Below, piece by piece: positions 19,211-43,352 of a DNA stretch of 64,000 nucleotides (position 1 is the first letter of the stretch; every line of letters starts with the position of its first letter). The stretch covers positions 168,791 through 232,790 of the forward strand of contig QPMI01000003.1 in assembly GCA_004431415.1 (NCBI GenBank). Direction: 5' to 3'. Position numbers and translations under genes: made by a program. The DNA comes from Cyanophora paradoxa CCMP329. Its lineage: Eukaryota > Plantae > Glaucophyta. Under the pieces are notes generated by a model. The model saw nothing but the letters and a program-made list of their open reading frames with translations. It did no database searches and was not told the DNA's origin.

Positions 19211-19440
19211 AACCGAATTTCATTTTATATTTTTTAAAGCGAGTGTGTGCTGCCAAAAATGCCCACCTGCACACACTTGCGACTTCAATCGAAATGTACG
19301 ATTAGCATATTTACGACGAAGTACGACGATAGACCACGTTAAAATAAACTCGCGCCCCGCCCACTATGCAAGATACATGCCTTTCTTATGCATGATCTAT
19401 GAAAAATAACAATAAACCCATCTCTCATTCTTCGAATTCT

Positions 19441-19704: not shown

Positions 19705-19712
19705 TCTTTTAC

Positions 19713-20747
19713 TTATAATGCCGAAATTAATTCACCAGTCCAGAATGTATGTGCATTTTCACTTCCAATCAATGAACCACCTTCGAGATATAGTCTCACA
19801 GTATCACCCGCAGATAAGTTGATTAACATTGTTTGGTTGATAGATCTATATGCATTTACTCCCACTGAACCTACAATTGCAGTATTTTTAACAGATATTG
19901 GATTCGCATTATTTACTTTTATCGAAACTGACACAGATTCTGTGGAAGCTCCTGTTGTTCCATTCAGAAGGAATCTATAACAACCTGTAACAGGTGCTGT
20001 AAATACTCCGGATCCTGAATTAAAATGGTTGCCATTGTTTAGAAAAACATGACCCCAAGAAACATCCCCAACCGTGCTTTTAATTGAATTAAGTGCCGCA
20101 AAAAATCGAGGATGGTTTGGAGTCCCAAGATAAGAGTTTGTTCCATTAATAGATAAACCGTTCCAAGTGTAAGTTCCTGCAACTGCTCCGGATGTTGAAT
20201 TAGTTGTAGTGGCTGTAAATGTAGAAGCAATCTTTGCCCCACCTCTCTTGATCTCAAAATTGTCATTTGCACCCACGGTATCAATTGCATTTGTTTTGAT
20301 ACCACCACTTGCTGTTAGGAGCCCAGTAAACCCACCTGTTGTCCCACTCACAGCCCCGGAATAATTGGTAGCTGTCACAGTCCCATTAACTGATAGTCCA
20401 GTCCCAATCCATGCCCCGCCACTGTAAACTTGAAATGCCGCCGAATTCCTATCAGCCGGATTAAAAGCCGTTTTGGAATCCTGTTGACCTTCATATAGAT
20501 TTTCTTTGGTGACCAGCCCCGAAGATATTGCGGGTCGATTAGATACGATCATTTGAGTAGCTTTAACGAGTCCATCAATCTTGTCGGCTCTGAGTTCTTT
20601 GACTCTGAGTATGCTTTGGTCATTAAAAGAATCGGTTTTCGCTGTCTCAGTCGAAGGGTGGCTCGGAGATAAATCATAGACTGTGTGTTGGACATTATGG
20701 ACAGCACTGGCTGATAAGGAAAACACAGGCGTGAATACAGTCGACAT
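19713..20747 (-). CDS. Fibre/spike protein with C-terminal C1q-like domain
   Basis: N-terminal LRVKELRADK...GGAWIG module, G/T-rich shaft, C1q-type head (PRFFA...NNGNHFNSGSGVFTAPVTGCYRF...LINLSAGDTV...FWTGELI). Confidence 0.8.
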   Translation of the reverse strand: MSTVFTPVFSLSASAVHNVQHTVYDLSPSHPSTETAKTDSFNDQSILRVKELRADKIDGLVKATQMIVSNRPAISSGLVTKENLYEGQQDSKTAFNPADRNSAAFQVYSGGAWIGTGLSVNGTVTATNYSGAVSGTTGGFTGLLTASGGIKTNAIDTVGANDNFEIKRGGAKIASTFTATTTNSTSGAVAGTYTWNGLSINGTNSYLGTPNHPRFFAALNSIKSTVGDVSWGHVFLNNGNHFNSGSGVFTAPVTGCYRFLLNGTTGASTESVSVSIKVNNANPISVKNTAIVGSVGVNAYRSINQTMLINLSAGDTVRLYLEGGSLIGSENAHTFWTGELISAL

Positions 20748-21079
20748 CTTTTGATTGTTCTTTACTTATTAAGCGAGAATATTATTGTTTTGGAGAGGTC
20801 CGACAGCAATCCAATGGAGTTTAAGGGTGCGATTAGCTGCTTCTACATTTGTGAAATTAGTTGATGCGAAAGTTGTGAATCTTACGATCCAGGTAAACTT
20901 AGTTTTTAAACCCACACGAGTATTATTAACATACTCAGGTCCTATATATACACAGTTAGTCATGTCCCAATTTACAGAGTTGAAGCTATTCTCAATAGAG
21001 GTAGTAATCACTGCATCACTATAAAATGGGGTAGAGAATACGACCGTTCCCGATAACTGAAAGGTTTCTCCTGCTGTGT

Positions 21080-21247
21080 TTTTTTTTTTTTTTGCAAAAG
21101 TGGACGTCGCATTGATACACCACGGCACATGTATCAATGTTCTACGTGACGTGCCCTTCCGACCGGTCATCTATCTAGCCGAGGGTGCTAGCTAGGTGCC
21201 GGCCATGGGTCGCTCAATATGGGAGGTTCGCCTGAGTGGGGGAGCCA
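21080..21247 (-). mobile_element. Short poly(A)-tailed retroposon (SINE or extreme 5'-truncated LINE)
   Basis: T-run at the left end (poly(A) on minus strand); flanked by a 22-bp TSD TGAAAGGTTTCTCCTGCTGTGT at 21058-21079 and 21248-21269; perfect 10-bp stem CATTGATACA/TGTATCAATG next to the tail. Confidence 0.88.
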
Positions 21248-21390
21248 TGAAAGGTTTCTCCTGCTGTGTATTGTCGATTTTCCAGGACTACATTCGCTGT
21301 CCCCTGTTGCACATATGCATTTGCATTTACATAACTACCGAAATTCGTGAGCAACTCTATGCTGTGATTGTGAGTGGGTGGCGAAGTAGG

Positions 21391-21545
21391 TGTGTTTATC
21401 AGATCATCATAATTTCCACTTGTAGCCACAGCATGTAGGTTTGGTGTGTTTATCAGATCATCATAATTTCCACTTGTAGCCACAGCATGTAGGTTTGGTG
21501 TGTTTATCAGATCATCATAATTTCCACTTGTGGCAACAGCATGCA
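21391..21545 (-). repeat. 54-bp coding tandem repeat (about 3 copies, LHAVATSGNYDDLINTPN)
   Basis: ggtgtgtttatcagatcatcataatttccacttgt recurs with 54-bp period. Confidence 0.9.
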
Positions 21546-22442
21546 AATTCGGCTTAGTAAATAACCTATCCCATGTCCCATTGAAAGGAAGTGTAGATTC
21601 TGATATAATTACACCTTGATCAATCCAACGAGGTATATAGCTTGTGAAATCGGGAGGATTTACAAGATCATAGTAATTTCCTGTGTATGCTACACTACTC
21701 CAAGTCGGCTTCTGAATGATATCACTCCACTTCCCACTAAATCCCGCCGGCACATCTGTAAGCTCTTTATAGCTCACCTTTTGTTTCGGTATAGACAGCT
21801 CGATTGGTGAGAATGCACCCGAAAGGCGATTTTCAGAGGTGAAATACATGAGACTTTGACTGTTAGGGAACTCATCCACGAGATTAAAGGTGAAATTCGT
21901 GGGTAATTCGAGGCGGCTGATTGGGGTGTTGTCGCCTAATATAAATTCGGCGCCTGTATGCACGACTGGGTTTCTTTGAATATACATATTTGATGCACCT
22001 ATTACAGGTGCTATTATGGGCACATCCGAATTAACGAGATTGCAAGTGATGGAGAAAATGGTTTTAGGGGCGAATAGATTGCAATCAAAGGTCACAGTAG
22101 CTGGATCAATAGTAGGATCGACGTTTGAACAGATCTGAAACATCCACCCACCCACACAGTTGCAATTTAGATTTCGAAAGGCTGTGCCTGCCATTGCATC
22201 CACATAGCCGATCCCATTCGCAATGTCATAGATGTGCCCAAACTCGTAACCAAAAATGTCATTCCATAGATTAGAAGCCATAGCTCCCATCACATAGCCT
22301 TTCATATTAACGATCAGATCATTGGATTCACTGGGTAGATCTTTATGGGTGATGTAGAATTGATTTTCCAATACAGCATTCTTTACTGTCGTTTCTACTA
22401 TGGGTTCCGTCATTATTTCTCTATTAAGGCATTCTACAAAAA

Positions 22443-24613
22443 TTAAGGTCGCATCGGGAGAAGCTCATATGTTCTGCCCTCTCGCTGTGCCATTTCCGCC
22501 ATAAAGTCTCTGTCATTATTCATCGTTTGCTCTGCCAATTCTTGTGCTCGTGATTTTTTGGGTGCTGCCCTATTTGCTGGTGGTCGGTCAGTCCTCACAA
22601 CACTTAGACCATTCCCCTCGGCTGATCGCACCTCTAAGCCCACATCTCCTTCGGCTGTTTGGGTCACATTCAGCTCAGGTGTTGAGTATTTATTACCTGC
22701 ACCTGCAATGACCCGATCACAACATGCACAACATAAAGCCCGAAATTTGTATGCAAGTATACCCCCGAATAAAGTAATAACAGGCACAACCACAGCAATA
22801 ACTATCAGTCCTGGATCGACACCACGACCCACGGGCTGGTTTGTAGGATTTGTGGGATTATTAGGTGTCGTGTTTGGATCTGGATCAGTTGTAGGGGGAT
22901 CTTTTGAATCGGGATCTGGGTTAGGCTGGTTCGGATTGGGATCGTTTGGTGGCGGCTCTGTCGACCCTGCTAATGAGGTTGGCGCTGTGTATGCATTCGC
23001 AAACACGATGGGAGCCGTCGCTGGATTTCCTGTGGAGGATCCTGAGATTGCACCATATTTATCTGCGAGATACTTGTATAATTCCTGTGTCACAGGCGGA
23101 TTGCTCACAGATCGACACACCCAAATATTGCACGTAGTGTCATAGACTGTGTCCCTGATAAAGGGCGGTAGAGCCGTCCCACTGAATGACTCAAAGAGTC
23201 CATTTCGCGATAGCAACCTATGTCCTGTATCACAATTTCCACCCTCAAAGTACTTCGAAGCCGAAATCGCACCTTGCACATAAATATTGCATGTCGAGTG
23301 CAATCCAATGTTATTTAGGTTAGGAGTGTATCTGTCATCGAGCCGGACAGTGCACACCCATGGGGAAGCGGTTTTTATATATTTCTTATCACCTGCTGTG
23401 ATGATATCAGTGTTTGGGTGGCTGTCAATTTGGGTAGCAATAGACTCATATTTGTAAGAGTAATAAACTAAGAGACCATCTGTGGAGGATGTAAAATAAA
23501 AGAAGTCTCTCATGAAGTCTGTGGATCCAAAGAAGTCAGCATTGGTCGATGTTAGGGTGACTTTGGGATAGCTCATGCTGACAGTCTCAGAAGGATATGG
23601 AATATAAGAGGTGTAATAGCGATTTAACAGATAATAGTAAAATCCATCTGAGACATTCGAATGAGTGGGCAAGGTGACTGTTAAGGTCTTACTGCGATCC
23701 TCAAACGTTTTATGTATGACAATGTTGCAAGTATTAATGTATCGAGAATCGAAAAAGTAATTATTTGTAACTCGATTATCGATCAGAGTAGCATTGGTTC
23801 CATTAAATACGAAGTTCTGCCCATTGATCCTCGTAGTATGAATGTCGGTAACATCGAGAGGATACCTTATTTTTAATCGGTCTTCGGGGTCAAATCGCGG
23901 AATAGTTCCTGTTGCCTTCCAACTCACAGTGAAGGGAGGATAAAACGACTCATATGGGATGACAGAAAGATTATATTTCGCGAAGTACAAACCAACAGGA
24001 TACGCTGACAGAGCATATGTGACAGTTGCATTTCCGACAAGTGTAAAGCCGGTGGTTGTTATGTTAGTTGCAACAAACGGGGAGTAGCCAGCTGGTGCAT
24101 TTTGAAGAGAGGTAGATGAGCCATCATTGACCACATAAAGATTCGGGTCTGTAATTTCAATGGTAGGAGGAGAGACAAATGGAGTCTCAAAAGTAAAGTT
24201 AAAGTTCGCTGGAACACCTGCAAGATACATATATGAGACCGATCCTATTTCGGATGCCTGGAATACTTTGCTTCCACTCCGCACTACATTACTTGTGTCT
24301 TTCACATTGTGGTATGATATGCTGGGAGTCGGGGAGAGCACCAACGAAATAGCATCTGGTAAATCAGACTTTGTTATATACAGCTCTTTAAGATACTCCT
24401 TTCTAAAAGGCGCGGTCAGATCTCCAATAGTAGCCGATGAACCTGCGACTACAATATTACAGGTGTTTGCACTCAAAGAATAAACTGTGTTCCACCTTAA
24501 AGAGTTCGCGCCAAGATCGAAATTCTGTGAGAAGGGCACGATATTGCTACCTTGTAAATCTCGGTAAACCTTTACTCTGGGTTCGCTATCGAATTCAGGG
24601 GTGATATAATTGA
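22443..24613 (-). pseudogene. 3' part of a large fibre/spike gene split by the Gypsy element; ends in a Pro/Asn/Thr stalk, a transmembrane helix and a Cys cluster
   Basis: Frame INYITPEFDSEPRVKVYRDLQGSNIVPFSQNFDLGANSLRW joins the 5' part across the TGGT TSD; GLIVIAVVVPVITLFGGILAY followed by KFRALCCACC. Confidence 0.85.
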
Positions 24614-24617
24614 TGGT

Positions 24618-25575
24618 TGTTAAGGCCGTATGGCCGTACCCGGTTTGCTTTTTCGACTGAATATTATAATTTAGTCATTCTAGCCGCACTCGTGTAAATG
24701 TCAGGCCCCGTAGTCCCCGGACATCCGGCGGGACGGCCTGAGTGTCGCAGCTGTGCGGCGTCGGACCGGAGTCTGGTCGGTCGGCTGCAGCGGCATGCCA
24801 GTAGGGCGCGCTTGAGCACGGATCTATAAGCGGTCGAGCTCAAGACGGCTAGACGTATTTATCATTACGAGCCGAGTGGGCTCGAGCCGGCTCGTGGTTC
24901 AAGCCGGCTCGGGGCCCCTCGGACCTGGCGTCGGTTCCGGGTCGAGTAATTAAGCAACTGACAGCGGGCATGGGCCGGCTACAGTCTGGCGCATGCTACG
25001 TGATATAGCCGCGGACTCAGACCTAGCTGACTACCAGCCTAGTACCAGGACACGTGAGTGGAACCGCGTCGCCGGTTGACCGACGGCCGGTAACCATTGG
25101 TCGGAAGGTTGGTAGTATGGCGGCGCCGGGTAAAAGGAGGCGGTACCCGTCTGGATTGCGATCCGAGTCTCTAAAACTCGGTAATTCGGCCAGGAAGCGC
25201 ATTCTTGAAGCTCGCCTAATCGCTGCAGCATCGCAGCGAAGCTAGGCGCCGTCGGCCTTCCTACCTGACACGCTTCACGTTCATCTGGTGCCTGAACCTG
25301 ATTCTTACGACCCCTTCCCTGATTCATGTAAAGCTTTGCACTGATCAAAACCCGCGTTCTAGACCCAAAATGTCAGACTCCAAGGGATCTGCTGTCAATA
25401 ACAAGACTCCGCCCTTTGCGTCCGACTTCCCTGGCTTGGTTGGGAAGCACGGCCATAACTGGGACGGGCAGTTCGCCGCTCTTGGGAAGCCTGAGGTTGG
25501 TCTTTTGTTCTTAATTGTGGGATTCCCGGGATAGTTCAGGAGCCTTGATCCGAAGAGGTTCTAGTCACCTTTTCA
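24618..25575 (+). repeat. 5' LTR (958 bp)
   Basis: Begins TGTTAAGG and ends CCTTTTCA; matches 34170-35128 apart from one C-run length difference seen by eye. Confidence 0.96.
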
Positions 25576-26689
25576 CGGAGGCGCTGCTCTAACGGCTGCG
25601 TTAACGGCCGTCGAACCCACGCTCCTACGACAACAGCCACGTTAACGGATTCGTAATTTTATCAAGGCTCGTCACTGAAACACCCGACCCACCGGACAGA
25701 TTCTTGCCGGTCAGGCCGCCGCGCTCCCGGCGTCGCGTCTCCACGAGCACATTGAGGAGACGAAGACGGTGACTACCTTTGAGCGGTCCCCGGTTTCCAA
25801 GGAGTACCGCCCCAAGCAAGAGGAGTCCACTCGCAAGTCCACGAAGACCTCCCAGTTCTACTCGTCTGTCACGGAGCTTCCGACGAAGGCCGCCCCGGCG
25901 CCCGCCCCTGCTCACGTCGCCCCGACGTACGGCGGTTTCGGTCCCGGCCAGACTGTGGCTTCGGGAGCGCCGCTGCCGGTGAGCTCGCCGCCCACGTTGC
26001 AGCAGATTGTGCGCGCCTAAAAGCCGTGTCGTCAACGCAACCGACGCTCACTGATTCGTCACATTAGATCCTCTACCAGGACCCGACGCTCGCCTACCTC
26101 GTTCCGTCGTTCGGCCAGCATCTGCTGCAGCCGCAGGTGTTCGCTGCGCCGACGACCGCGATTGGTGCCGGAGCTGTGGGCACGCCGCTCAAGGGAGGCG
26201 CCGGCTTCGTCAAGGCCGTGGTGCCGCTCGAGCGCACGCTCTTCGGTTCGGACACCCCAGCGAAGCTGGTTCGACCGGCACGTGCACCCCGCACCCTGAT
26301 AAAGGTTTCCTTGTGCGCTGTGCCGACGGTCACTGGATCGTAGACGCCGGCTACTCGCCGTCCTCGCCGTCCGGCTCCGCCTCCGGCGTCAAGCGTGAGT
26401 AAACGGTCGACAAGCGCGGATTCGGAAGTGCGTATACGCCTCGCCGCCTGTTGACAGTGCGTTTACTGACGATCAACTTTTCGGTATCGGTCCTCAGTGC
26501 CTCTGATCGTCGTTTTCGGCCTCGGAAGCAGTGCGCCCGGGCTTTATTTATCGAACTCTGTGAACAGTTCCTTACGTATTCCTTTTTGGAACGCGCGCAG
26601 TGACTTCGATTCTCCTTTTCCTCCCCTTTAATAAAACCCTCCCCTGCCTGCTGCTTCGTAGCATAATTTTGCAATCAAACGAAGAAGCA

Positions 26690-28135
26690 ATGGCTGTGCA
26701 GGCTGCCAACGCAGCAGTAGCGGCGACGGAAGCCGTAGCTAAGGCTATCAAGCAGTTTAAGGTGGACTCGGATAGAAAGGATCTTCCACTGCCTGAACTG
26801 CGAGGCAATAAGATACTTCGCTTCCTTGAAGAGTATGATCTCTTTAGCGCTAGTATCGAGGGCGACACGCCCGCGGAGGTTTCGAAGGCGCGCGCGAACG
26901 CACTTATGAAGTGCCTACGGCGGTCGAATCAGCTCACGGCCACGAGTCTAGTGCGCTGCATCGAGCGGGAGGCCGCACTCGATCGAAATGACTACGAGGC
27001 TTTGCGCACATATATTATAAACAAGTACACGGAGGCTCAGAACCCGGAGGCTGTACTAAGGCAGCACATACAAGAGGCCGCCTCGTCTCTCTGCGAGATC
27101 GATCGACCAGGTTCGCTGGAGGCCGGCATGTACGTAAAGGACTGCGTTTCCTATCGGCGCCTACTGAATATGGAAAACGTCTGGACCGACTCGACATTAA
27201 TTAACGCGATGGCAATGGCCTTGAGCGAAAATAAGCGACTACATAAGCTGGCGCACAAAGCCTACAGGAAGCTCACGGCGGCAAATAGCAACGTGACTAC
27301 CTGGGAAAAGCTATTCGTCGAGTACGTCACTGACGACGCCGCCTACGCTATCCAGGCCGCGGCGGCAAAGGTGGCCGCTGTCCAAGAGCCCATGGGGATG
27401 GCCCCGCCGCCACCTCCAGCCGCATCGCCCGCCGCTCTAAAGGAGGTCATTAGCGAGGCCTTGCGCGAGCGCGACGTGGGACTCACTCGAGAGCTGGCGA
27501 CGCTGCGAGCCAACATCGTGGAAGTCCGCGATCACGTTGGCCAGCGCCCTGAAACTGCGGGAGGGTACAGTGAGCCCGCGCCGCAGGGATACCAGCGGCA
27601 GCAGCAGGGGTACCCGCAGCAAGGCCAGGGGTATCAGCGCCCGCGGTCCGATCAGCGGCAGCAGAGGCCGGAGCGCAAACGCCCACCGAACGCCGGCTTT
27701 GATGCTGACGGCCGGATCATCTGCAATTATTGTGGGAAGAGCGGGCACATTATAGCTGAATGCCGTACCCGCAAGATGGAAGAGGGAACTGCCGCTGCGC
27801 GTGGTCCGCGCCAGCAGCCGCCCCAGCAGCAGCAGAGCTTCGGCTCTGGGTTCAAGCGTCAGCGCCAGGACGAGAATTTCTCGCAAGGCGGGGGCAAGAA
27901 ACCGTTCAAGGGAAAGGGAGGCTATCAGGGCCGCCCCTTCCAGTCGCAAGGCGCAGCCTCGAACGTCCAGTGTGACTTCTGTGGACGGTTCAATCACACT
28001 GCGGACAAGTGCTTCTTTAAGAAGAAGCAGGATGAAGAGCAGCAGAAGGAGAGGCAGACCGCAGCGATCGCGGCTCTCCAGCAGCAGCTGCAAGAGTTGA
28101 ACTTTCGTAGCCAGGGCGGGAGGCCCTCGGCGTAA
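26690..28135 (+). CDS. gag: Gag with two CCHC zinc knuckles
   Basis: CNYCGKSGHIIAEC and CDFCGRFNHTADKC; first ATG (MAVQAAN) at 26690. Confidence 0.9.
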   Translation: MAVQAANAAVAATEAVAKAIKQFKVDSDRKDLPLPELRGNKILRFLEEYDLFSASIEGDTPAEVSKARANALMKCLRRSNQLTATSLVRCIEREAALDRNDYEALRTYIINKYTEAQNPEAVLRQHIQEAASSLCEIDRPGSLEAGMYVKDCVSYRRLLNMENVWTDSTLINAMAMALSENKRLHKLAHKAYRKLTAANSNVTTWEKLFVEYVTDDAAYAIQAAAAKVAAVQEPMGMAPPPPPAASPAALKEVISEALRERDVGLTRELATLRANIVEVRDHVGQRPETAGGYSEPAPQGYQRQQQGYPQQGQGYQRPRSDQRQQRPERKRPPNAGFDADGRIICNYCGKSGHIIAECRTRKMEEGTAAARGPRQQPPQQQQSFGSGFKRQRQDENFSQGGGKKPFKGKGGYQGRPFQSQGAASNVQCDFCGRFNHTADKCFFKKKQDEEQQKERQTAAIAALQQQLQELNFRSQGGRPSA

Positions 28136-31100
28136 ACCTGCAAGTAAAGTCAGTGGCGAGCGAGCTCAGCCGAGTCGCTCGGTTGTACAGTCACCTGTAA
28201 ATACGCGTGATTTCGTGGACAGGAACCCGTATGCAGTGCTCACAGTCGAGAACGCGCGCTCGACGCCTTCCAAGTGTGAAACGGAGCAGCAAAATAAACG
28301 TAAATACGAAACGGACGATGAATACCCGTTGCAAGCTGAAGAACGCGCGCTCGACTTGGAGGATGCGGGCAGCGTCGGCATGACCGAAGGCATCCTGGGG
28401 CCCCAGGACAGCGTCGGCGTGACCGAAGGCACCTATGCCCTGCGCAAGACTGGCCCCGGCTCAGCGCCAGTGCAGGATGCGGGAGCTCGACCCCGGCCCA
28501 GACCAGCAAGGTCGAAGGCCAAGGCGGCGTACCTCAAAGAGCATCGCTCGAAGGGCGCCCAGGGGCAAAGCTCTCAAGAGAGGACGGCTGGATCGTCACA
28601 TGCTCGGCTCGCCTCGCCTGGGGACGCTCAGGTGGGGAGTATTGAGTTAGCCGTGCGGTCTGGACGTACTTCTGATATGGGGATGAAAGAGGGGACGAGC
28701 AGCCTCGGCGCTGCACAGTCTCCTGACTCGGCGACGGTACCTGATCATGGTGAGCCAACCCCTCGTGGAGCGGACCAACAAAAGGCCGCAAGCGAAGGCG
28801 GACTTAGTCCGGTCGCACCTAAACGAGTCGAAAGAAAGCTCTTTATCCCAACTAATCGCAAGTTGGTTGAGCGAGACTTACAGCGCGCTGGCAAGCGGCT
28901 GTGTGTAAAGGAAACCTCAGCTCCAGCGCCCGCAGCAAGCACGGCGGAGATGAGCATCAATTTTGCAGATCTGTACACAATCCCCACAGATCAGAATGAG
29001 GTAGACGCACTAGTTGCGGAATTATTAACGGAGGCCGAGGTGCTCGCACCCACCTCGACGCGACGGAGAGGCGTCCACGCCTATGTAAAAATCAAAGTCA
29101 ATAGCAACAGCGCTATCGATGCATTAATAGATAGCGGTGCAGCTTATTCAATCGTCGCAGAGGCGGTGATTAAACACTTTGGCTTGGAGCAGCATATCGA
29201 CCGCTCGTTCACATGCTCGTTTGCAACAGCGGACGGCTCTCCGGTTAAGTGCGTAGGGCTGATCTATCTTGATATCACCCTAGGGAGCATGGTGCATGCT
29301 CGGCAGCCTTTCTTCGTGTGGAAGCGGCTGCCAACAAACGTCATTCTAGGCGCAGACTTCGTCAAAGCAAATCGCTGGTTAATAGACCTAGCGGACGGGC
29401 TGCTTATCCATAAGGATAAAATGGACGAACAAGTGAAAATGATGAATGACGAGAAGGCGCCAGCGATGACTCTGCCCGAGGACGTGCGTATCCCTCCGGC
29501 ATCTGAGAAAAATATTCAACTGGTGCTGCGAGACGCCCTCACTCAGCCGAAGGACGGGACCTGTGGTTTGATGGAACGGTCCGGAGCATTTGCAGTGCAG
29601 CACGACCTCATGCCTGCAGACACTGTGACTAAGTGGGACGGCGGCACATGTACAGTGAGAGTGCTGAACCCCGGTGTCAAGGGCGTCGTCCTGTGCAAAG
29701 GCACGGCGGTCGGCTACTGGACGGAAGCATCGCAATTAAATATTAGCACCATTTTTGAAAACGGCGCAGTGAACAGTAAGGAACCAGCGATACGCACAGC
29801 AGTCGCAGCAGTAGCCGAGGCAGCACGCGGCCAGCTTGAGCCAACCACCTGTTGGTGTGGGCAAGCACAGTGCAAAGAGTGTCAGGCTAAAGCAGCTGAC
29901 AAGGATTGGCAAGAGCTAAAAACCAGACTAGACGTCGGCTTCGACGAGCTACCCCGTCGCATACGCGACGCAGTGTACGACGTGCTTTATACAAAACGAC
30001 ATATGTTTACCTTAAGCTATAAGGTAGAGCCAGGCAAAACGATGCCTGCAGAATTTGCGCACGTAATCGACACTGGTGATCACAGGCCAATTCGTGTTCC
30101 CCTGCGACAAATGGACCCTATTCGGAGGGCCGAAATTCGAAAAATTATTCAGGAACAGTTAGACGCTGGAGTGATCGTACCTTCAAAATCACCGTGGGCA
30201 TTTCCAGTAGTACTGGCGAAAAAGAAGGATGGTACTTGGCGGTTCTGCGTAGATTACCGTCAGTTGAATACGATCACAAAACAGGATGCTTACCCGCTTC
30301 CTCGCATCGACGATATATTCAATAATCTACAAGGCGCAGTAATATTCTCTACGCTCGATATGGTCTCAGGGTATTGGCAGTTGCCCTTATCTGAGGAGAG
30401 CAAAGAGAAAACAGCCTTCAGGACGAGTGAAGGACAGTTTGAATTCACGCAATTACCGTTCGGCCTCTCGGGAGCGCCGCGGAGCTTCCAAAACGCCATG
30501 AATATTATCCTTTCCGGCTTGGCATGGACGCACGCGCTGTGTTACCTCGATGACCTGGTCGTTTACAGCCGGTCGATTGAAACGCATGCTAGAGACCTAG
30601 ACAGGGTGCTATCTCGACTGGATGAGGCGAACGTACGTCTGAAGCCCACAAAATGCAAGTTCGCGAAGGCGGAAGTCGAACTACTGGGCCATGTGGTCGA
30701 TGCATCAGGGGTACGTGTGGACCCCAAGAAAGTCCAGATTCTTCATGACTGGCCGCAGCCTAAGACAGTCCGTCAGCTGCGAGGATTTCTGGGTTTCGCG
30801 TCTTATTACAGGAAATTTATTGAAGGATTTTCTGTTCTAGCAGCCCCTCTCACGTCCTTATTACGGGCACGGATACCGTGGATGTGGAAAGAGGCGCAGC
30901 AAGAAGCTTTCGAAAAGCTAAAGAAAAGATTGACCTCTGCACCAGTGCTGCAATATCCGGACTTCGGTCGACCCTTCATTGTACAGACCGACGCCTGCAT
31001 CGATGGCTTCAGCGCAATTCTCAAACAAAAAGATGATCATGGTCGGGAATATATTGTGGGATGCGCCAGCAGGACGACTACTGATTCAGAACGCAATTAC

Positions 31101-34100
31101 TGGCCGACGGACCTCGAGGGTGCGGCAGCAGTCTGGGCAATTACGGAACAGTTCCGACCGTACTTGGAACTGGGACCTTTCACCCTGCGTACGGACCATG
31201 AGGCGCTGCTGGCAATTTTCAAGCCAAATTATCCCTTAAGCGGGATGGCAGCAAATCGTGCTACAAAATGGGCAGTAAAATTGCAGAGATTTATGCCATT
31301 CACGATCGAGCACGTGAAGGGTAAAATCAACGGCGATGCGGACGTGATCTCGCGTTTATATGACTATTATGGTAAAGTGAGACCCCGGAGGGATGTGACT
31401 ACCTCGGAGGTGTCAACGCAGACGGACAGTGACGCAAGCCCCAGCCTAGGCGTAAATGCAGTCTCTGCGTCGAATAATGAGGGAAATGAGGTCGAGGATA
31501 ACGTGGGCACAGAGAGCCCGGCTACACTCGCCGCGTCGCTCACGGACCTGCTCACACCGGCTCAAGCGGGCAGCGGGCCCCCGTCCCTATTCGAGCTGGC
31601 AAAGCTGAACCTGACAGCGACACTTGCTAGTCAGGGCGATCGATTGGCAATCACGGAATTTCTAAAAAGAAGAGAGGTAGCGCACCGGCTCAAGAATAAG
31701 CCAGCGGTGCAGCCGCCACGAATTGTGCATTTCACATTAGCACCAGCGGACAACCCCAGAGCAGAGCAGCTCATGGGTACTCGCAGCTGGAAGCAGCACA
31801 TCGATAGACTTCCTTTGAGTCAGGCGGCAGTGCTCAGTCTGCATATTATGTCAGGGCAAGACAGGCGAGGCCGGCGGGGACCTTGCCTCGGATTCCGGAA
31901 AACGCTGCAGAAAGTAAAAGATGCCTCAAATATAGCAGGCGCAGCGATTCCGGGCTGGATGGTTCGCATCGTACGCGCAGCAGTCGATATCTGTCCGCTG
32001 TGCAGGAGTCGACGTCAGCGCAAACGTCGAGTGCAGCAGCGGGGGGAGTTACCTGCCGTGGCGACGACCCAGCAGTCGGCGGCCACAGCGGATCCTCGTG
32101 TGCGTGACGCACAGCGCGACGATCCGACCTTGCGGGCATTAATTGTTTATATGGAAGGCGGTGCAGCAGCACAAAAGCTTACAGTCAAGGAACGCGAGGC
32201 GTTAGCTGTACAGTCACAGGATTATACGTTAGGTCCTGGCGGTCTGCTGCTTCATCTGTCGTATCCCCACGGGGAGACACGTGAGCGCATCGTGATCCCA
32301 GTTTCCCTGCGGAAGGAAATTATTAAGGAAGCGCATAGCGGCTTCGGATCGGGACACGGCGGTTATCATGCGACGAATAATCGACTTCAGCGAAGTTTTT
32401 ATTGGCCCCGGATGCGGGACTCGGTTCGCAAATATGTATCTCTGTGCGAGCACTGCCGCACCCAGAAATTTGATAGGCCGACTAGCAAAGAGCCTACGCC
32501 GCGATATTCGTCTCGGCCTATGCAGCGCTGGCAGATGGACGAAGTCAATTTCGCTGGCAAGGGTGGAAAGGCATTGATCACCTTTGAAGACACGTTCAGT
32601 AAATGGATGTGTGCGTCGGCGCATGAAAGCGTAAATGCGCAGACCATTATTCAAGCAATCTTGGCGGTAATCTACGAGCACGGCTTGATGATCGAACTTG
32701 AATGCGATCAAGGGTCAGCTTTCACGTCGAAAGAAGTGCGCGAGTTTCTCACCTTGATGGGAATTAAATTGGTGATCATGCCAGCATATACGCCGCAAGC
32801 GAAAGGTGTGCTGGAACGCGGACATCAGACGCTAGAAGCCAAAATCCGCAGCTTAGCTAGTGATCATAAAACGCACTGGACACGTGTGGTCGGTGAGGCA
32901 CTGCTAGCTATGCGCACGACGGTTTCTCAAGCTACGGGATTCACGCCGTTCCGGCTCATGCGCGGATACGATCCCTATCTTCCGATCGATCTGCACTATG
33001 CGTCACTGCCTACGCTCGCAGAGGGCGCGCCGCGGCTCACGGCAGTCGAGGTGCAGACAGCAGCGTTTGGACCCGCAAAGACTACGGTAGCGGCCGACGC
33101 AGTGGACGAAGATGCGGTCTGGATCCGCGATTCCGCCTGTACGAATGGCTGGCGCTTAGCAGCCAACAAGCACAGCAGCGCGGGACGTATGCGTACACAT
33201 ATGCGATGCCGCTGGCGTTCGGACGCAACTGCAGCAGCGGCGGCTATGATATATATTGCTGGTATAGCTAAGCAACTCACTTTCACGAACCCTGGCCCCG
33301 CGCTTCTGAAGCCGTCTTCACGTCGACCCCCTAAGCTGCGAGGCGCGCAGGCAACTGCAGCGGGCGGCGTTGAACACGCTGAGGCCGATATGGGCACCGA
33401 TATCGAAGGCGATATGCATACGTATACGCGTCAAATGCATAGACATGCACAGTTAGCTGAGCGGCATATGCATATAGCGGACTCGACCAGCTCGAGCGGC
33501 AATGCCACAGCTGCAGCTGAAGCTGAAGCTGGTATTAGGACCGATAACAACGCTAGCCTTGGCGTTGGCGGCCCGGGGGTTGGCATGCGCAGTGCGGTGC
33601 CCGCGCACTCTTCAGCTGCTAGTGGTACTACTAGTAGCGCTGCACACGGACCGGAAATTAATATTGAACAGCGGTCGACTGGCAGTGATCAGCCAACGTC
33701 GGCAATGTACAGGTCGATAGTCCAGTTACCCGCTTCTAATGAAGTACTCACGGCTTGGTTAAAAATCCACAAAAATCAGCAAATTGCTGATTGGCGGATG
33801 GCCTTTCTGAATCTGTTCAAACAGAGCTTGAGAATTAAGCACGGTTGGATCGACAAGGGGCGCCGAAGGAATTTCAAAGTCGGCGATCCAGTTGATTTAT
33901 ATCTGCCACCGGAGAGAACCAAAAAGCCTGGACAGGCTGCCGCTTCTGGTATTCCGGACCATATATTGTCGAGGAGGTAGTGAGCGGGTCTCGGGTTAAA
34001 GTCCGGTCGGTGCCGGATGATCCCCGAATTTTTCATCGACCTGGGCAGTTGATCGAGGTCCATGTCTCGCGGTTGCGACCCTTTCCGATCGAGAACCTTT

Positions 34101-34114
34101 TGTCTTTGCCTTGA
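28101..34114 (+). CDS. pol: Pol polyprotein (protease, RT, RNase H, integrase with GPY/F module)
   Basis: ALIDSGA; SPWAFPVV..KKDG..RFCVDYR; YLDD; QTDAC..TDH..ADVISR; integrase H..H..YWP..C..C, WQMD, CDQG, LER. Frame is open from 28101. The terminal GPYIV...VHVSRLRPF lies in a shifted frame (33944-34114) after an A-run. Confidence 0.93.
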
Positions 34115-34155
34115 GGCGTACCCGGTTTGCTTTTTAAGCGTCGAGGTCGACGCTT

Positions 34156-34169
34156 GGTGGAGGCCGGCA
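34156..34169 (+). other. Putative polypurine tract of the Gypsy element
   Basis: Purine-rich GGTGGAGGCCGGCA immediately 5' of the 3' LTR. Confidence 0.55.
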
Positions 34170-35128
34170 TGTTAAGGCCGTATGGCCGTACCCGGTTTGC
34201 TTTTTCGACTGAATATTATAATTTAGTCATTCTAGCCGCACTCGTGTAAATGTCAGGCCCCGTAGTCCCCGGACATCCGGCGGGACGGCCTGAGTGTCGC
34301 AGCTGTGCGGCGTCGGACCGGAGTCTGGTCGGTCGGCTGCAGCGGCATGCCAGTAGGGCGCGCTTGAGCACGGATCTATAAGCGGTCGAGCTCAAGACGG
34401 CTAGACGTATTTATCATTACGAGCCGAGTGGGCTCGAGCCGGCTCGTGGTTCAAGCCGGCTCGGGGCCCCTCGGACCTGGCGTCGGTTCCGGGTCGAGTA
34501 ATTAAGCAACTGACAGCGGGCATGGGCCGGCTACAGTCTGGCGCATGCTACGTGATATAGCCGCGGACTCAGACCTAGCTGACTACCAGCCTAGTACCAG
34601 GACACGTGAGTGGAACCGCGTCGCCGGTTGACCGACGGCCGGTAACCATTGGTCGGAAGGTTGGTAGTATGGCGGCGCCGGGTAAAAGGAGGCGGTACCC
34701 GTCTGGATTGCGATCCGAGTCTCTAAAACTCGGTAATTCGGCCAGGAAGCGCATTCTTGAAGCTCGCCTAATCGCTGCAGCATCGCAGCGAAGCTAGGCG
34801 CCGTCGGCCTTCCTACCTGACACGCTTCACGTTCATCTGGTGCCTGAACCTGATTCTTACGACCCCTTCCCCTGATTCATGTAAAGCTTTGCACTGATCA
34901 AAACCCGCGTTCTAGACCCAAAATGTCAGACTCCAAGGGATCTGCTGTCAATAACAAGACTCCGCCCTTTGCGTCCGACTTCCCTGGCTTGGTTGGGAAG
35001 CACGGCCATAACTGGGACGGGCAGTTCGCCGCTCTTGGGAAGCCTGAGGTTGGTCTTTTGTTCTTAATTGTGGGATTCCCGGGATAGTTCAGGAGCCTTG
35101 ATCCGAAGAGGTTCTAGTCACCTTTTCA
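34170..35128 (+). repeat. 3' LTR (959 bp)
   Basis: Direct repeat of 24618-25575. Confidence 0.96.
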
Positions 35129-36683
35129 TGGTAAGAGTGAAACTAATAGTAGCTTCGGAAGTCAATAAGCTGTTTCGGATGATAAGTAAATTGTATGTCT
35201 CGTTAATGACAAACGAAACCTGAAACCCTGTGGAGGTGACATTTTGAATAAATGCTTTATTCGATTCATTATTGTTAGTGATAGGATTATAATAAGTAGT
35301 GTGATCCACCAATGAAACAGTGGGTATAGTCGTCTCGAAACCTGTGACACCCAACTGATCCCAAGTGAATGTATATGTAGGTTTGCCTACATAAGCGACA
35401 TAGACCCCATTCGCGATCTGCTGAGGGTATCCCTCGACAGTGTAGGTCTCAGTCCGCGAAACTGATTGGGAAAGGTTACTATTAAAGTCAGTGTAGCTGA
35501 TCAGTGCATTATCACTGGTGAGAATCTGATTAGGTCGGAGTGAGTGATTAAATGGAAGGATTAAATTGGAGGCAAACATGGAAACTCCATGCAACTCTGA
35601 CCATCTCAGATTCGATAAACCAACTCGGTATGTGTTGTCAGTCGCGGGGTATATGTTCCTTTTCGACAGAATATGGGCTAAGGTAATTGCAAGCGCTCCA
35701 TCTGCTGCAAACAGAGCATTAATTTCTGATTGCAAAGCCGCGATTTCGGTTGTGTGGGTCGTGAGGGTTCCATCTTGGCTGGAATCTTTGGTGTTCTTGT
35801 TCCTCTCAAACTCCAAAAACGCCTTTACGATGTCCTTGCCTAAAAGATCGTTTATATTGTCTCTGGTAATGTAAACATGATCTGTTCTCAGTGCCTGTTT
35901 CTCTGTGGTAAAAGCCGGAATTTCTTCTGCAAATGATATAGTCGTTTTATCAAGTGCTAAGGATCTCACATTCGGAGCATTGGCGCCAATAACATCCACA
36001 ACGTTCCCGTTTTCGACAATTTCTAAGGTCGGTTTCGCGGGGTCTAATGTGAAAACACCCTCTGTTATCTGGGGAACCGATTCGCTCTTCTGAATCACAA
36101 AGGATTCGATGTTTAGGTTACAGGTTGCGACATTGGTGGCGAAAAACGACTCGGAGTTAAGCGAGTTTACATTTAGGGTATCCGTAGTGATGTTACTTGC
36201 TGTAATGTTACTCGTCGTTAGATTACCTGCTGAGAGATCATGGACGACCTCTACCTTTGTTTTCCGTGTGGATACTCCCGCTATAAGTGTGCTATTATCC
36301 ACGATTCTCATAGCTGCATTTTGGAAACCGCTCTCATCTTGAATGAAGAAGTTTAAGCGACCTCTATCGAATGCTTTCGGGATGTTCCTACGATTATATC
36401 GCACCGTTTTCGGTAGCTGGCGGGTTGCCTGAATGCTGGCGACTCTGTTTCGTTCGTTATCATCGAGTAAAAAGTCGATTCCAAGTTTATGATCCCCTTT
36501 CTCGACGTTCAGTAACTGCAAAGCTGCGGGTCTGCTCGGTGTCCCACTGACTGGATCTTCGCGGTCTGCATTGTAATTTATTCTCAGAGACCCGCGAATT
36601 TCAGTGTTTACCTGATCAGTGTCCTCTATCTGAGTGGTCGAATTAATAACTCGTGCGTCTGGTCGCGGATTCAGGAACGACAT
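35129..36683 (-). pseudogene. 5' part of the large fibre/spike gene (restored length 1241 aa)
   Basis: ATG at 36683 (MSFLNPRP); beta-rich repeats, a coiled-coil segment and the fibre-type motif IYPATDNTYRVGLSNLRW; reads ...ISFTLT into the TSD. Confidence 0.85.
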
Positions 36684-36726
36684 CCTCTTTATAAACAAAG
36701 AAGATATATAAGAAGTATATAAGATA

Positions 36727-38220
36727 ATGAAGACCGTCCTCGCTTTGAGTGGTGGAGGGTCGCGTGGAATAATCGAGGCTGCTATACTGGCACAGATTGA
36801 AGCCCAAACCGGTAAACGAATCCAACAGCTATTCGACTGCTTTGCGGGAACATCCACAGGTGGATTAATCGCGCTCCTATTGAATATCAAGGGAACCGAT
36901 GGCGCCCCTAAATATACTGCCACTGATATTCTGGCGCTCTACAAAGCGAAGCTGCCGCTGATTTTCGCGAATCCACGAGTGCTTACATCGATTGTACAGC
37001 GCCCAAAGTACGAAGCAACTAACTTAGAAGCTGTGGCTCTGGAACTCTGCGGCTCAGCGACCATGGCGGATCTCTACAAACCCACCATAGTAACTGCGTT
37101 CGACACGGTTCAAATGTCCCCCGTTTTTATTTCAAGCAACGATGAAGATATTAATGGGATGCTTGTGCGCGATGCTGCAAGGGCTACCTCGGCTGCGCCC
37201 ACCTATTTCGAGCCGAAACAAGTCACAGTCGCCGGGAGAACATATTGTTTAATCGATGGTTGCATGAGCGGAAATAATTCGCCCGGGGTTTGTGGTTACA
37301 CATTCGCCCGCACTTTATTCGGAAACTCTTGCGAGGAGGAGCTTATCGTGGTCTCGATTACGGCGGGTCACGTCCAAGACTCTGATAAGGCGACATCTGG
37401 ATATTCGTACGACACTATGAAAAATTGGGGGATCGTGCAATGGATGCTAAGCGCCACAGGATCGCCAATTCTCAGCATGTTCTTAGAGTCGAGTGATCTA
37501 AACGCCCACGTAAAGCTACTGGAACTTTTACCCAGAAACGATGATCAGAATTACGATCGCTACTATAAGCTGAGCGTTCCTTTACCGAAAGATAAAATGA
37601 CCCTCGATACTATCACAACGACGCACTTGCAATATTTAGAAACGGAAGCGCTCGCGTTTGTTTCCGCACAGCAAACGTATTTTAATGCGATGTATTCAGT
37701 GCTGACGATGAATATATCAGAGGGAGACGTTCCCATTATTAATCTGTCCGGGTGCACAGATGTAAGTGTACCCCCGGAGTCTAACTGGGTGCCGCTCGAT
37801 AATAGCGCCTTTATTGCGGAATTTGGCACAGCTTCTGATGCCCGCTGGTCAAATGCTACGGGGTGGGTGGGATTTACCAACCCGCCGCAAGGTAGTAGGT
37901 CGGGAGGCAATTATTTACGCATTGATTTTCCGCGTCTGTTTATGCTTTCCTCTATAAAAATGAAGCCGGCTGCGAATGGAAACTACATTAAAACGTTTGA
38001 GATCGATTACCAATTAACTCCGGGAGTTTCTGCGCTTGTCACATACACAGAAGCCGGCGCGACGAGAGTGTTTACCAATGCAAATCAAATAGCCGGAAGT
38101 GTAGAGCCCGACGAACATTTCTTAGCGAACCCGAGATCTGTGAGAACCCTCGTAATCTGGGTGCTCACGACGAACGTAGCTTCGGCATGCCGAATTGATT
38201 TCGAGGGCTACTACGTGTGA
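36727..38220 (+). CDS. Patatin-like phospholipase fused to a C-terminal discoidin/F5-8C-like domain
   Basis: LSGGGSRG oxyanion loop, GTSTG nucleophile, ATSAAPTYF, IDG catalytic Asp; C-terminal W.G...YLRIDF...YIKTFEIDY...RIDFEG pattern of F5/8 type C folds. Confidence 0.88.
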   Translation: MKTVLALSGGGSRGIIEAAILAQIEAQTGKRIQQLFDCFAGTSTGGLIALLLNIKGTDGAPKYTATDILALYKAKLPLIFANPRVLTSIVQRPKYEATNLEAVALELCGSATMADLYKPTIVTAFDTVQMSPVFISSNDEDINGMLVRDAARATSAAPTYFEPKQVTVAGRTYCLIDGCMSGNNSPGVCGYTFARTLFGNSCEEELIVVSITAGHVQDSDKATSGYSYDTMKNWGIVQWMLSATGSPILSMFLESSDLNAHVKLLELLPRNDDQNYDRYYKLSVPLPKDKMTLDTITTTHLQYLETEALAFVSAQQTYFNAMYSVLTMNISEGDVPIINLSGCTDVSVPPESNWVPLDNSAFIAEFGTASDARWSNATGWVGFTNPPQGSRSGGNYLRIDFPRLFMLSSIKMKPAANGNYIKTFEIDYQLTPGVSALVTYTEAGATRVFTNANQIAGSVEPDEHFLANPRSVRTLVIWVLTTNVASACRIDFEGYYV

Positions 38221-38227
38221 ACAGCGC

Positions 38228-39073
38228 TTAATCCGTGATCACTTCCAGCTGAAACGAGTATGAGAGACCGTTTATATCTGCAACAGATCCCCGCCATTTT
38301 CGAAGCGAAATTGTGAGACGATCTAAATCGAGTTGCGATGTGACATTTACGAAAGGGATGCTTGCGCTCGGTTCGTGGTAAAAGGAATATCTACCAAAGT
38401 CCGAGTTCATCTGAATTCGCAATAGATAGGAGTCGTCGAAATTGTTCTGTCTCCCAGTAACCGCTGCGAATTTGGTAAACGGGCGGAGCTCTTCGATATC
38501 AAGGTAAATATATGGAATTGCATTAAAGTCGACCATTTTCGGGCATATAATCGCGTAGCGACTGGGGTAATCTCTGAGTGGAACCGGCACTGGTTCTGGT
38601 GTGCTGGCGTAAACCACTCCGGGTTCTATGCCGAGACAGTCACAGAACTCCTGGTCTGAGGACTCTAATGTAAAAGGGCTATTCGGAGATGAGAACACGA
38701 AGCGGTTCGTAGAGAGAGCGAGAGAATAGGAGACCGGGAAGAGACCGAGTGGATTAAAAGAACCGCCCGCAAATCCGAGTAAAGCATCACTGTTTAGAGC
38801 TCTCTCTTTCGGATATCGTTCGTTATCAGCATCGACGTAATAATAATCGTTTACGCTGGGAATCGGTGCTATCATTTTGGATGCGGGGATTACTGTGGGC
38901 TCTTCGTTCAAAAACGTTATAGTTATTGTCTGATCGGGCGGAACAACATAAGAGCTATTGGGAATCTCAGCGGATAGCACACGAAATCGTCGTACATTAT
39001 TAAGGCGCGTTTTCAAGTGCAGCACGCCGTTTTCAAGGTCTCTACTGTCGCAATTTATTGTTATTCTTTTCAT
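38228..39073 (-). CDS. Minor capsid (penton) protein 1
   Basis: ITINCDSRD...LNNVRRFRVLSAEIPNSSY, YIYLDI, LDRLTISLR..G...DING.SYSFQLEV: single-jelly-roll penton signature of PLVs/NCLDVs. Confidence 0.82.
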   Translation of the reverse strand: MKRITINCDSRDLENGVLHLKTRLNNVRRFRVLSAEIPNSSYVVPPDQTITITFLNEEPTVIPASKMIAPIPSVNDYYYVDADNERYPKERALNSDALLGFAGGSFNPLGLFPVSYSLALSTNRFVFSSPNSPFTLESSDQEFCDCLGIEPGVVYASTPEPVPVPLRDYPSRYAIICPKMVDFNAIPYIYLDIEELRPFTKFAAVTGRQNNFDDSYLLRIQMNSDFGRYSFYHEPSASIPFVNVTSQLDLDRLTISLRKWRGSVADINGLSYSFQLEVITD

Positions 39074-39089
39074 AATCTATTATAGTAAG

Positions 39090-40016
39090 ATGAAAGAATA
39101 CCTGAGCTTTTCGAGCGATGATCGCGACGAGGAGTTTACACAGCCAAACCAGTATGTAGTGACATTACCCCGTCGCTATGACAACGTAAAATCGGTGCGC
39201 CTGGTGCAGGCAACGGTTCCCAATGTTCTTTCGACCGTGACAAATGATATAGACGCCACTGGTGCAACCATCGAGCGCATGGAACTCTATTTCTCGGTCA
39301 CAGCTTCGGATTCCGGATTCGTGACCATCACAATCCCCAAAGGATTTTACACCAAAGACGACCTTGCCGCAAAAGTCACAGAAAGACTCGAAGCAGCTCG
39401 CCTTTCAGATTTCGGTGGAAAATATATTAAATGCCGCTATAATACTACTTCAAAGATCTATGAGTTTTTCAGTGATAGTAACTTTTGGTTCAAGTTCTCC
39501 AAAGCTTCCCCTGAAACACTCAGAAAATCCAGTAACCGCAAAGCAATCGCTAAGAAACTCGCAATATTCGGTTTCAAAGATATTCAGCTATATGTTTACG
39601 AGACATTTACCCCTCTTGCAAGCGATACATTCCTTGTGTTTAATCCTGGGACGGGAACTGTGACACTCAATCGACGCATTCGCGGCTATACTCGTGGAGA
39701 TGAGACCCCGGCGGCGATGATCTGGCTATATATTGACGAATTTGCGCCGTTTATTCGCTCAGTCAACAAGCACGTCGATGGTTATTTCATGCGCATTCCA
39801 ATCCCACAGGAACTCGAACATGGTGATATCTACCACTTCGACACGTCCACTACGGTGCCTCTCATTCGTGAATTCCGCGAATTAAAATCGTTCGACCGCT
39901 TGACGATTAAACTCATCGACCATGATGGCGCTCTCTTAGATTTCGGGGTTTGGGCGCATTATTTCACTTTTGAAATCGAAACCTACGACGCACCGCCCGA
40001 AATGAATTTCTACTAA
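39090..40016 (+). CDS. Minor capsid (penton) protein 2
   Basis: LSFSSDDRD...PNQYVVTLPRRYDNVKSVRLVQATVPN, IWLYID, FDRLTIKLIDHDG.LLDFG..HYFTFEI; ATG at 39090. Confidence 0.82.
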   Translation: MKEYLSFSSDDRDEEFTQPNQYVVTLPRRYDNVKSVRLVQATVPNVLSTVTNDIDATGATIERMELYFSVTASDSGFVTITIPKGFYTKDDLAAKVTERLEAARLSDFGGKYIKCRYNTTSKIYEFFSDSNFWFKFSKASPETLRKSSNRKAIAKKLAIFGFKDIQLYVYETFTPLASDTFLVFNPGTGTVTLNRRIRGYTRGDETPAAMIWLYIDEFAPFIRSVNKHVDGYFMRIPIPQELEHGDIYHFDTSTTVPLIREFRELKSFDRLTIKLIDHDGALLDFGVWAHYFTFEIETYDAPPEMNFY

Positions 40017-43350: not shown

Positions 43351-43352
43351 TC

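Follow-up and report, generated by a model that had tools for sequence, protein, structure and literature searches.

A Polinton-like virus (PLV) resident in the genome of the glaucophyte Cyanophora paradoxa CCMP329 encodes a fiber-like protein of 1241 amino acids, and our analysis supports the view that this protein is real, selected, and membrane-anchored. The gene lies in a window of 64,000 nucleotides (contig QPMI01000003.1, positions 168,791 to 232,790), which is the whole stretch of DNA that we analyzed. There, it is split by a nested retrotransposon. The features on which the argument draws are given below in window coordinates.

18518..57000, unstranded: endogenous PLV, some 23 kb once the two retroelements nested in it are subtracted; right end undefined
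22443..24613, minus: C-terminal gene piece, running to residue 1241 and the stop
22446..22748, minus: charged tail, 101 aa
22458..22469, minus: terminal YxxΦ motif, which we take to be a sorting motif; YELL here, YEHV and YEHI in other copies
22719..22748, minus: KFR and CCACC directly after the helix; in one variant, CCAC is retained and Ile replaces the last Cys
22749..22811, minus: predicted transmembrane helix, residues 1120-1140 (hydropathy scales)
22812..22979, minus: Pro/Asn/Thr/Asp stalk (P, N, T, and D make up 41 of its 56 residues)
22980..23903, minus: further beta-rich region, in which TCNI occurs three times; matches no family
23904..24557, minus: module B, RW shaft motif and H-lectin-like domain (H_lectin top match E 0.062, below cut-off)
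24614..24617, plus: left TGGT target-site duplication, 4 bp
24618..35128, plus: Ty3/gypsy LTR retrotransposon inside the fiber-like gene, 10.5 kb
24618-25575 and 34170-35128: LTRs, 958/959 nt, 0 mismatches, 1 gap, TG...CA
26690-28135: gag
28380-33980: pol
35129..35132, plus: right TGGT target-site duplication
35129..36683, minus: N-terminal gene piece, an open frame that encodes residues 1-518 and supplies the junction codon with its first base; contains a beta-rich region resembling a shaft, a stretch resembling a coiled coil, and the first repeat module
35130..35669, minus: module A, RW shaft motif and H-lectin-like domain (H_lectin top match E 0.01, below cut-off)
36684..36726, unstranded: divergent AT-rich spacer, 43 nt, with TATA[AG] before both starts
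36727..38220, plus: patatin-like phospholipase; its C-terminal domain, without a family match, is presumably discoidin-like

A preliminary description of this DNA had proposed that the two gene pieces form one frame when joined across the TGGT duplication, and both the coordinates and the arithmetic hold. Specifically, 1555 + 2171 nt give 1242 codons, or 1241 amino acids and a stop, and each piece is itself an open frame (518 and 722 aa). The empty site was crossed by a contig in all three DNA-type runs (X1, X2, and X9; one contig each), and thus the two gene halves are continuous in other copies. In the same runs, a contig end at 24615 runs on into window letters behind the 3' LTR, with one base different. 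The insertion has the TG...CA LTRs, target duplication, gag, and protease-RT-RNase H-integrase order of a Ty3/gypsy element, and it is young. The window copy of the fiber-like gene, broken by this retrotransposon, would depend on other copies.

Toward its C terminus, the protein carries a hydrophobic helix whose best Kyte-Doolittle 19-mer (2.83) was reached by only 1 of 5000 shuffles, as scored by hydropathy scales rather than by a dedicated topology predictor. It is the only membrane-grade stretch in the 19 frames scanned, the best of the other 18 scoring 1.63. We could reproduce the helix from the preliminary description, together with the KFR, the CCACC, and the charged tail that follow it. 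We likewise saw no signal-peptide-like stretch at the protein start (best 9-mer hydropathy in the first 35 residues, 0.06). Charge is 0 before the helix and +2 after it. A single helix followed by positive charge is a feature of type I membrane proteins; the N-terminal signal peptide of that class is absent here. Tail-anchored proteins have their helix within about 30 residues of the C terminus, whereas 101 residues follow it in this protein. One other candidate, residues 321-339, was rejected as an internal signal because its hydropathy is no better than that of shuffles (2042/5000).

The tail is under selection, since 11 of the 13 listed differences between copies are silent, compared with an expectation of 24%. 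Conservation in other copies had been named as a check on the anchor, and it is partly borne out: the CCAC, the YxxΦ motif, and the tail are kept, and the helix core lies outside contig cover. This stretch (22768-22831) is uncovered by X1 and X9 contigs and bridged by no listed contig, leaving the core unseen in other copies. The gap is a hole in the contigs and no evidence of helix loss. Variants enter and leave it in frame, and there are no indels in 22560-23010 among the listed differences.

The region before the helix combines repeated shaft motifs with putative binding modules, as fiber proteins do. The phage-fiber motif P..N.Y.LG....RW, the TCN(I/L) motifs, and the stalk had all been noticed earlier, and each was recovered. 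We counted two matches resembling the first and five TCN[IL] motifs, against a mean of 0.017 and a maximum of 2 in 5000 shuffles. Modules A and B align with each other as an internal duplication, with a score reached in 5 of 1000 shuffles. The two H_lectin scores, 13.9 and 16.4 bits, fall short of the 24-bit cut-off, and a PDB profile search with the modules gave no match. The ectodomain is a mosaic among copies: one X2 contig skips 420 nt of module B in frame, and the stalk varies in length in frame, including a 78-nt skip in other copies. In Atlas, the nearest clusters to the N-terminal piece are phage tail-fiber proteins (0.84-0.89), a lead only, and the C-terminal piece had no usable match. 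Single-chain AlphaFold models (pLDDT 30 and 38) were unusable. A Pfam family scan detected no S74 domain, and the protein lacks the N-terminal domain common to the C1q-headed fibers of the window.

Homology searches returned little. There was no homologue of the C-terminal piece among proteins of length 397-1264, or of the N-terminal piece among proteins of length 284-907. A HMMER search of the C-terminal piece against 1.84 billion representatives yielded 1 match, from a bacterium, which we rejected as compositional because it covers only the low-complexity stalk and helix. Viral sequence scans and metagenome scans each gave 0 related loci, phage records matched neither piece, and PHROGs and PDB yielded nothing significant for either. 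Other than the sub-threshold matches, neither a fold nor a homologue backs the fiber call, and a trimeric fiber fold and sugar binding are putative.

The fiber-like gene and the divergent patatin gene start just 43 nt apart. TATA[AG] precedes 8 of 17 genes at a distance of no more than 18 nt from the start (shuffle mean, 1.3; reached in 0/5000), for a motif that was picked after looking. It is common to the fiber-like gene, both putative pentons, the ATPase, the lipase, and one other fiber, and the fiber-like protein is likely made late. One 215-nt contig from a presumed RNA run meets the gene end (depth 3, 26 differences) and two further presumed RNA runs gave nothing, which is uninformative on expression.

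The surrounding PLV is multicopy, and its gene set agrees with that of published glaucophyte elements, for which an H_lectin fiber and patatin-discoidin fusions are reported in PMC12220804. It encodes an A32-like packaging ATPase (Pox_A32, E 1.7e-10; 42484-43350), an integrase (rve, E 9e-14), and other fibers. A 1438-aa replicase has PolB-like and helicase motifs, the helicase Pfam matches being below cut-off. A candidate double jelly-roll major capsid frame near 40064-41376 is frameshifted; its size and place fit, and it has one relative at 60%, though its best PDB hit (E 0.56) is not a match and a 308-aa part is without a Pfam match. There are two candidate minor capsid frames, of 281 and 308 aa, with a DUF5901 hit below cut-off (E 0.0011). 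Within the window, we found no terminal inverted repeats or target duplication for the left end, and the right end is perhaps outside the window or no longer present. No protease family, and hence no capsid maturation cysteine protease as in canonical Polintons/Mavericks or virophages, was detected among the element's frames scanned; the protease is likewise absent from glaucophyte elements in Table S6 of PMC12220804 (0/156). Codon use in the stalk, helix, and tail is like that of the element's genes and unlike that of the GC-rich retroelements, which argues against recent capture from the host.

Our best reading, held tentatively, is that a late fiber anchored in an ER-derived or helper-virus membrane tethers capsids to that membrane. 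The protein would sit in ER-derived membrane with its fiber on the side where capsids form, holding progeny capsids so that they can be wrapped, leave the cell, or travel along with a helper giant virus. An SRP-type insertion could leave the N-terminal part, folded by then, in the cytosol; alternatively, the protein could enter open factory membranes. The N terminus might dock on a penton. Consistent with a tether are the continuous allele, the single membrane-grade helix, the silent tail differences, the in-frame variation of stalk length and the mosaic ectodomain, the missing signal peptide, the upstream motif common to virion genes, and the virus-like codon use. The late transmembrane protein za3_7 of Zamilon is abundant in giant-virus particles and absent from virophage particles (PMC11464507), the outer surface of vaccinia originates from the ER luminal side (PMC4213562), and PLV fibers are described as homotrimers bound to the penton (PMC12220804). 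Against a tether, a cytosolic tail is indicated by the 0/+2 charge, the cysteine cluster, and the preserved YxxΦ alike, and a closed membrane would then have the fiber on its opposite side. Furthermore, the C1q-fiber N-terminal domain is missing, so that penton docking is a candidate only, the element has other fibers, the fiber call has no fold or homologue other than sub-threshold matches, the helix core is unseen in copies, and we know of no helper virus for this host.

The same tail features favor a type-I-like display, a reading only a little less likely than the tether. Here the fiber would be outside, at the cell surface, in the endosome lumen, or on a viral envelope, with a palmitoylated, YxxΦ-sorted tail in the cytosol, and could serve as an envelope attachment spike, an adhesin, a giant-virus decoy, or a superinfection block. 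The positive-inside charge, the kept CCAC, the YxxΦ kept in three alleles, the extracellular-type stalk, and the variable ectodomain beside a conserved tail all fit, and the Maverick fusogen is a precedent. However, a signal peptide is missing, as is the room for it; 1119 residues would need to cross post-translationally, and N-out signal anchors are limited in the length that they can pass across a membrane. The sole internal hydrophobic stretch is at shuffle level, and N-glycosylation sequons are about as frequent as chance predicts (10 vs 9.3 and 8 vs 9.3), an uninformative count. We consider it rather unlikely that stalk, helix, palmitoylation cluster, and tyrosine sorting motif were grafted as an enveloped-virus-style anchor onto a phage-type lectin fiber, yielding membrane-wrapped particles or a fiber set in a helper giant virus or the host surface without a signal peptide. 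It is improbable that the anchor serves folding or storage, whereby a trimer built on a membrane would be released by a cut in the stalk and become an ordinary capsid fiber, by MYRF-like logic and with the anchor in place of the S74 chaperone common in PLV fibers. Many PLV fibers end in S74 (PMC12220804) and this one does not, and the stalk is long, flexible, and variable in length; still, the element has no recognized protease gene, no cleavage motif was found, and this reading would leave the selection at the distal end of the tail unexplained.

We give little weight to a virion with an internal membrane, PRD1- or NCLDV-like, in which the fiber is rooted through a vertex. A single late gene with a membrane helix lies beside capsid genes, and a review (PMC10301787) repeats an early report that Sputnik has an inner lipid layer, but no second membrane protein appeared among the frames scanned and, according to a later paper (PMC11464507), virophage virions have no internal membrane. 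An artefact, whether an assembly error that fused two genes or a functionless captured host tail, has the least to recommend it and is largely refuted. The window copy does have other frameshifts (capsid and AdoMet decarboxylase), and no listed contig bridges the helix core. Nevertheless, variants pass the uncovered stretch in frame with no indel listed around it, neither piece contains an in-frame start with the upstream motif, and the tail has its silent excess and virus-like codon use.

These results also temper the preliminary interpretation. Its premise that PLV and virophage virions are non-enveloped is softened by virophage transmembrane proteins, one of which enters giant-virus rather than virophage particles (PMC11464507), and by the fusogen of nematode Mavericks (10.1101/2022.07.12.499685). 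Because such proteins are known, the helix alone does not imply the suggested lipid-containing particle, although the membrane-anchored fiber-like protein itself is supported, and the refuting condition of separate genes merged by a sequence error does not hold. A host-surface, decoy, or superinfection role is favored by tail charge, cysteines, and YxxΦ and made difficult by the 1119 N-terminal residues that must be outside without a signal peptide.

A membrane tether would be surprising in a virus regarded as naked, and the anchor bears on how PLVs exit, enter a new cell, and meet helper giant viruses. To our knowledge, very few PLVs have been isolated. A selected anchor on a fiber offers a direct handle, in that topology and location would separate wrapped particles, helper riding, and host-surface arming; with a multicopy gene family in one organism with many public runs, such a test is within reach. 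Surveys of PLV fibers by domain only miss membrane anchors.

Among known systems, MYRF, a trimer of the phage-tailspike type, is attached to a membrane through a helix that lies downstream, and it carries a self-cleaving S74-like domain, which was not detected in the protein here. D8 and H3 are attachment proteins of the vaccinia mature virion (PMC4213562). They have a C-terminal anchor and no signal peptide, and they share the order of attachment domain first and membrane helix near the end; they differ in their short tails, their lack of a fiber shaft, and a virus with a known membrane. MFUS-1 of nematode Mavericks, taken as a sign of enveloped particles, is likewise a single-pass membrane protein in a Polinton-class element, but it carries a signal peptide and adopts the herpes gB fold (10.1101/2022.07.12.499685), whereas the protein here looks like a fiber. 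Zamilon za3_7 and other virophage transmembrane proteins are late membrane proteins of capsid viruses said to be without their own membrane, though in the accessible parts of PMC11464507 and PMC10301787 they are not described as fibers, and we found no sequence link to them. The phage-like PLV fibers of PMC12220804 are similar in exceeding 1000 aa, in their modular build with lectin-type domains, and in lying beside minor capsid and lipase genes. Those described there terminate in an S74 chaperone or in a binding head, not in stalk, helix, and tail, and the word "transmembrane" is absent from that paper and its two supplements. Membrane proteins of virophages and Mavericks were already known, and the literature searched contained no fusion of a fiber with a membrane anchor.

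The fibre-like gene of the endogenous Polinton-like virus (PLV; the element) is split by an LTR retrotransposon that sits between its two minus-strand frames. Features of the window are as follows.

20769-22413, minus: repeat fibre of 399 aa and frame of 133 aa with a duplicated 34-nt stretch in common; may be a single gene whose end was broken or duplicated
22443-24611, minus: C-piece open frame of the fibre-like gene, 722 aa plus stop
24618-25575 and 34170-35128: LTRs of the inserted element, with TG...CA ends
35130-36683, minus: N-piece open frame of the fibre-like gene, 518 aa
40064-41376, plus: putative major capsid with a frameshift near 40190; no family match, and a single relative, at 60% identity, in a search of 5.8 billion proteins
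41492-42310, plus: DUF4379 treble-clef zinc-finger repeat protein with a nuclease-like end, between the capsid and ATPase genes
45170-50088, minus: second nested retroelement, non-LTR, 5'-truncated, with RT and RNase H; flanked by an 18-bp target duplication (45152-45169, 50089-50106); a relative of the host copy at about 3943-9658
56347-56743, minus: AdoMet decarboxylase, spread across three frames
57159-58129: tandem-repeat arrays (32-nt and 57-nt units) and dispersed repeats between two gene clusters; a possible element end or origin
58762-64000, minus: second fibre-gene cluster, made up of a repeat fibre ending in H_lectin and several paralogues, partly decayed, of the C1q-headed fibre that have a 125-aa N-terminal domain in common; either a second element or the far end of the same one

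A zinc-knuckle gag and a pol in the order protease, RT, RNase H, integrase identify the inserted element as Ty3/gypsy. Its LTRs show 0 mismatches and 1 gap over 958 aligned bases, so the insertion is young, and TGGT is present at either flank. Joining across TGGT gives one frame (1555 + 2171 nt, 1242 codons), as the preliminary description had proposed. In each of three public DNA-type sequencing runs (X1, X2, and X9), one contig departs from the window at 24615 and continues as the sequence behind the 3' LTR with 1 base different, indicating that other copies lack the insertion and continue across the junction. PLV fibre genes broken by retrotransposons have already been published.

The element occupies about 23 kb, not counting the two nested retroelements, and GC falls to 45% from about 18518. 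It encodes an A32 ATPase, an rve integrase, a protein combining PolB-like and helicase parts, a patatin, two putative minor capsids, and additional C1q-headed fibres; its putative major capsid and AdoMet decarboxylase genes are both frameshifted. We found no protease among its genes and no terminal repeats within the window. In the glaucophyte row of Table S6 of PMC12220804, 139 of 156 elements carry A32, 85 rve, 89 lipases, and 66 AdoMet_dc, and 0/156 a protease. By that table, AdoMet decarboxylase is a marker of glaucophyte and some cryptophyte PLVs; the other AdoMet_dc rows among those listed belong to three cryptophytes, none with more than one lipase. Glaucophyte elements are also described in that source as having patatin-discoidin fusions and a fibre with H_lectin. 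Judged by this gene content, the host is probably a glaucophyte. TATA[AG] is found no more than 18 nt from the start of 8/17 genes, including the fibre-like gene, the ATPase, the lipase, and both putative minor capsids; it is absent before the major capsid gene and two other fibre genes. Separately, a 32-nt motif (core ATTTTCTCCGG) at 44706, 50211, and 55976 precedes the basic-protein, replicase, and DUF5710 genes and may be an early promoter of a different kind from TATA[AG].

The predicted protein begins with a beta-rich region of short repeats (residues 1-200), followed by a stretch that by eye resembles a coiled coil (310-345). Two copies of a roughly 180-residue module then flank the insertion (modules A and B; 23% identity, an alignment score reached in 5/1000 shuffles). 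Each module opens with an RW motif (P..N.Y.LG....RW-like) and closes with a domain that matches H_lectin best in Pfam, at sub-threshold significance (E = 0.01 and 0.062). The recurrent TCN[IL] motif was counted five times. Atlas neighbours of the N piece were phage tail-fibre clusters (0.84-0.89), which we treat as a lead only; searches of protein and contig collections returned no true homologue. After module B come a further region without assigned family, a 56-residue stalk, a predicted 21-residue helix, KFR, CCACC, and a charged tail of 101 residues ending in YELLPMRP. The helix has a KD hydropathy of 2.83, reached in 1/5000 shuffles; the next-best value among 18 other frames scanned was 1.63. 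A hydrophobic leader was sought at the protein start and none was found, in line with the reported lack of an evident signal peptide. On the opposite strand, the patatin gene begins after a gap of 43 nt.

Sequence from 19700 to 24611 was present in 20/24 listed runs, all from one organism. Contigs on 21600-24720 numbered 422 (X1), 910 (X2), and 439 (X9), and their identities, from >99% down to <90%, point to many diverged copies; depth does not give a copy number. A 78-nt in-frame skip within the stalk was seen in X1, X2, and X9, and a 420-nt in-frame skip in one run removes most of module B; the third listed skip (157 nt, not a multiple of three) may be a replacement. We classed all listed single-site differences in the C piece as silent or not (35 distinct sites, from 40 of 285 rows in one listing and all 19 in the other). 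Silent differences made up 11/13 in the tail versus 24% expected (nominal P = 7e-6, a guide only, as few contigs supply the sites, which are not independent), 6/11 in the ectodomain, and 5/11 in the stalk. CCAC is kept in a variant copy with the last Cys replaced by Ile, and the terminal YxxΦ keeps its Tyr and hydrophobic fourth residue while the middle residues vary (YEHV... and YEHIPNVM-stop, at loose contig ends). Just ahead of the helix, the variant sequence is PVG[AS]PG[MT]DP, which has one extra codon and stays in frame; X1 and X9 contigs cover the last helix residues, with the core (22768-22831) outside their coverage. Codon use toward the element's table was 0.53 (stalk), 0.65 (helix), and 0.53 (tail) bits per codon. 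The element's genes score similarly (0.21-0.71), whereas values for the GC-rich retroelements are -0.15 to -0.37; this speaks against a recent acquisition from the host, whose flank is 76% GC. That the anchor is an artefact we consider highly improbable.

How might such a protein work? With 101 residues behind it, the helix would leave the ribosome during synthesis and, in a eukaryotic cell, be taken to the ER. A folded part of 1100 residues ahead of such a helix normally remains in the cytosol. Fibres have one end on the capsid and the other pointing outward; those of PLVs form trimers on the penton according to PMC12220804. If its far end were held in a membrane, the protein would link that membrane to the capsid, a model that we favour tentatively. 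However, the charge after the helix (+2), the cysteines at the membrane edge, and the terminal YxxΦ make the tail read as cytosolic. Only open ER-derived sheets, of the kind used by giant-virus factories, would accommodate both a cytosolic fibre part and a cytosolic-type tail. Display on the cell surface or an envelope is unlikely, if a serious competitor; an anchor for folding that is later cleaved seems improbable, and an internal membrane in the virion quite improbable. The preliminary description, which envisaged a membrane-tethered, possibly palmitoylated fibre serving as spike, decoy, or superinfection-exclusion factor, is confirmed and strengthened as a sequence observation and supported in part as an interpretation.

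A fibre fused to stalk, helix, and tail was not found in the literature searched; the word "transmembrane" is absent from the text and supplements of PMC12220804. PLV fibres, virophage membrane proteins, and a Maverick fusogen are already in print, the last encoded by nematode Mavericks (10.1101/2022.07.12.499685). The outer surface of vaccinia is described as originating from the ER luminal side (PMC4213562), and a late membrane protein of Zamilon is reported in giant-virus particles and not in Zamilon particles (PMC11464507).
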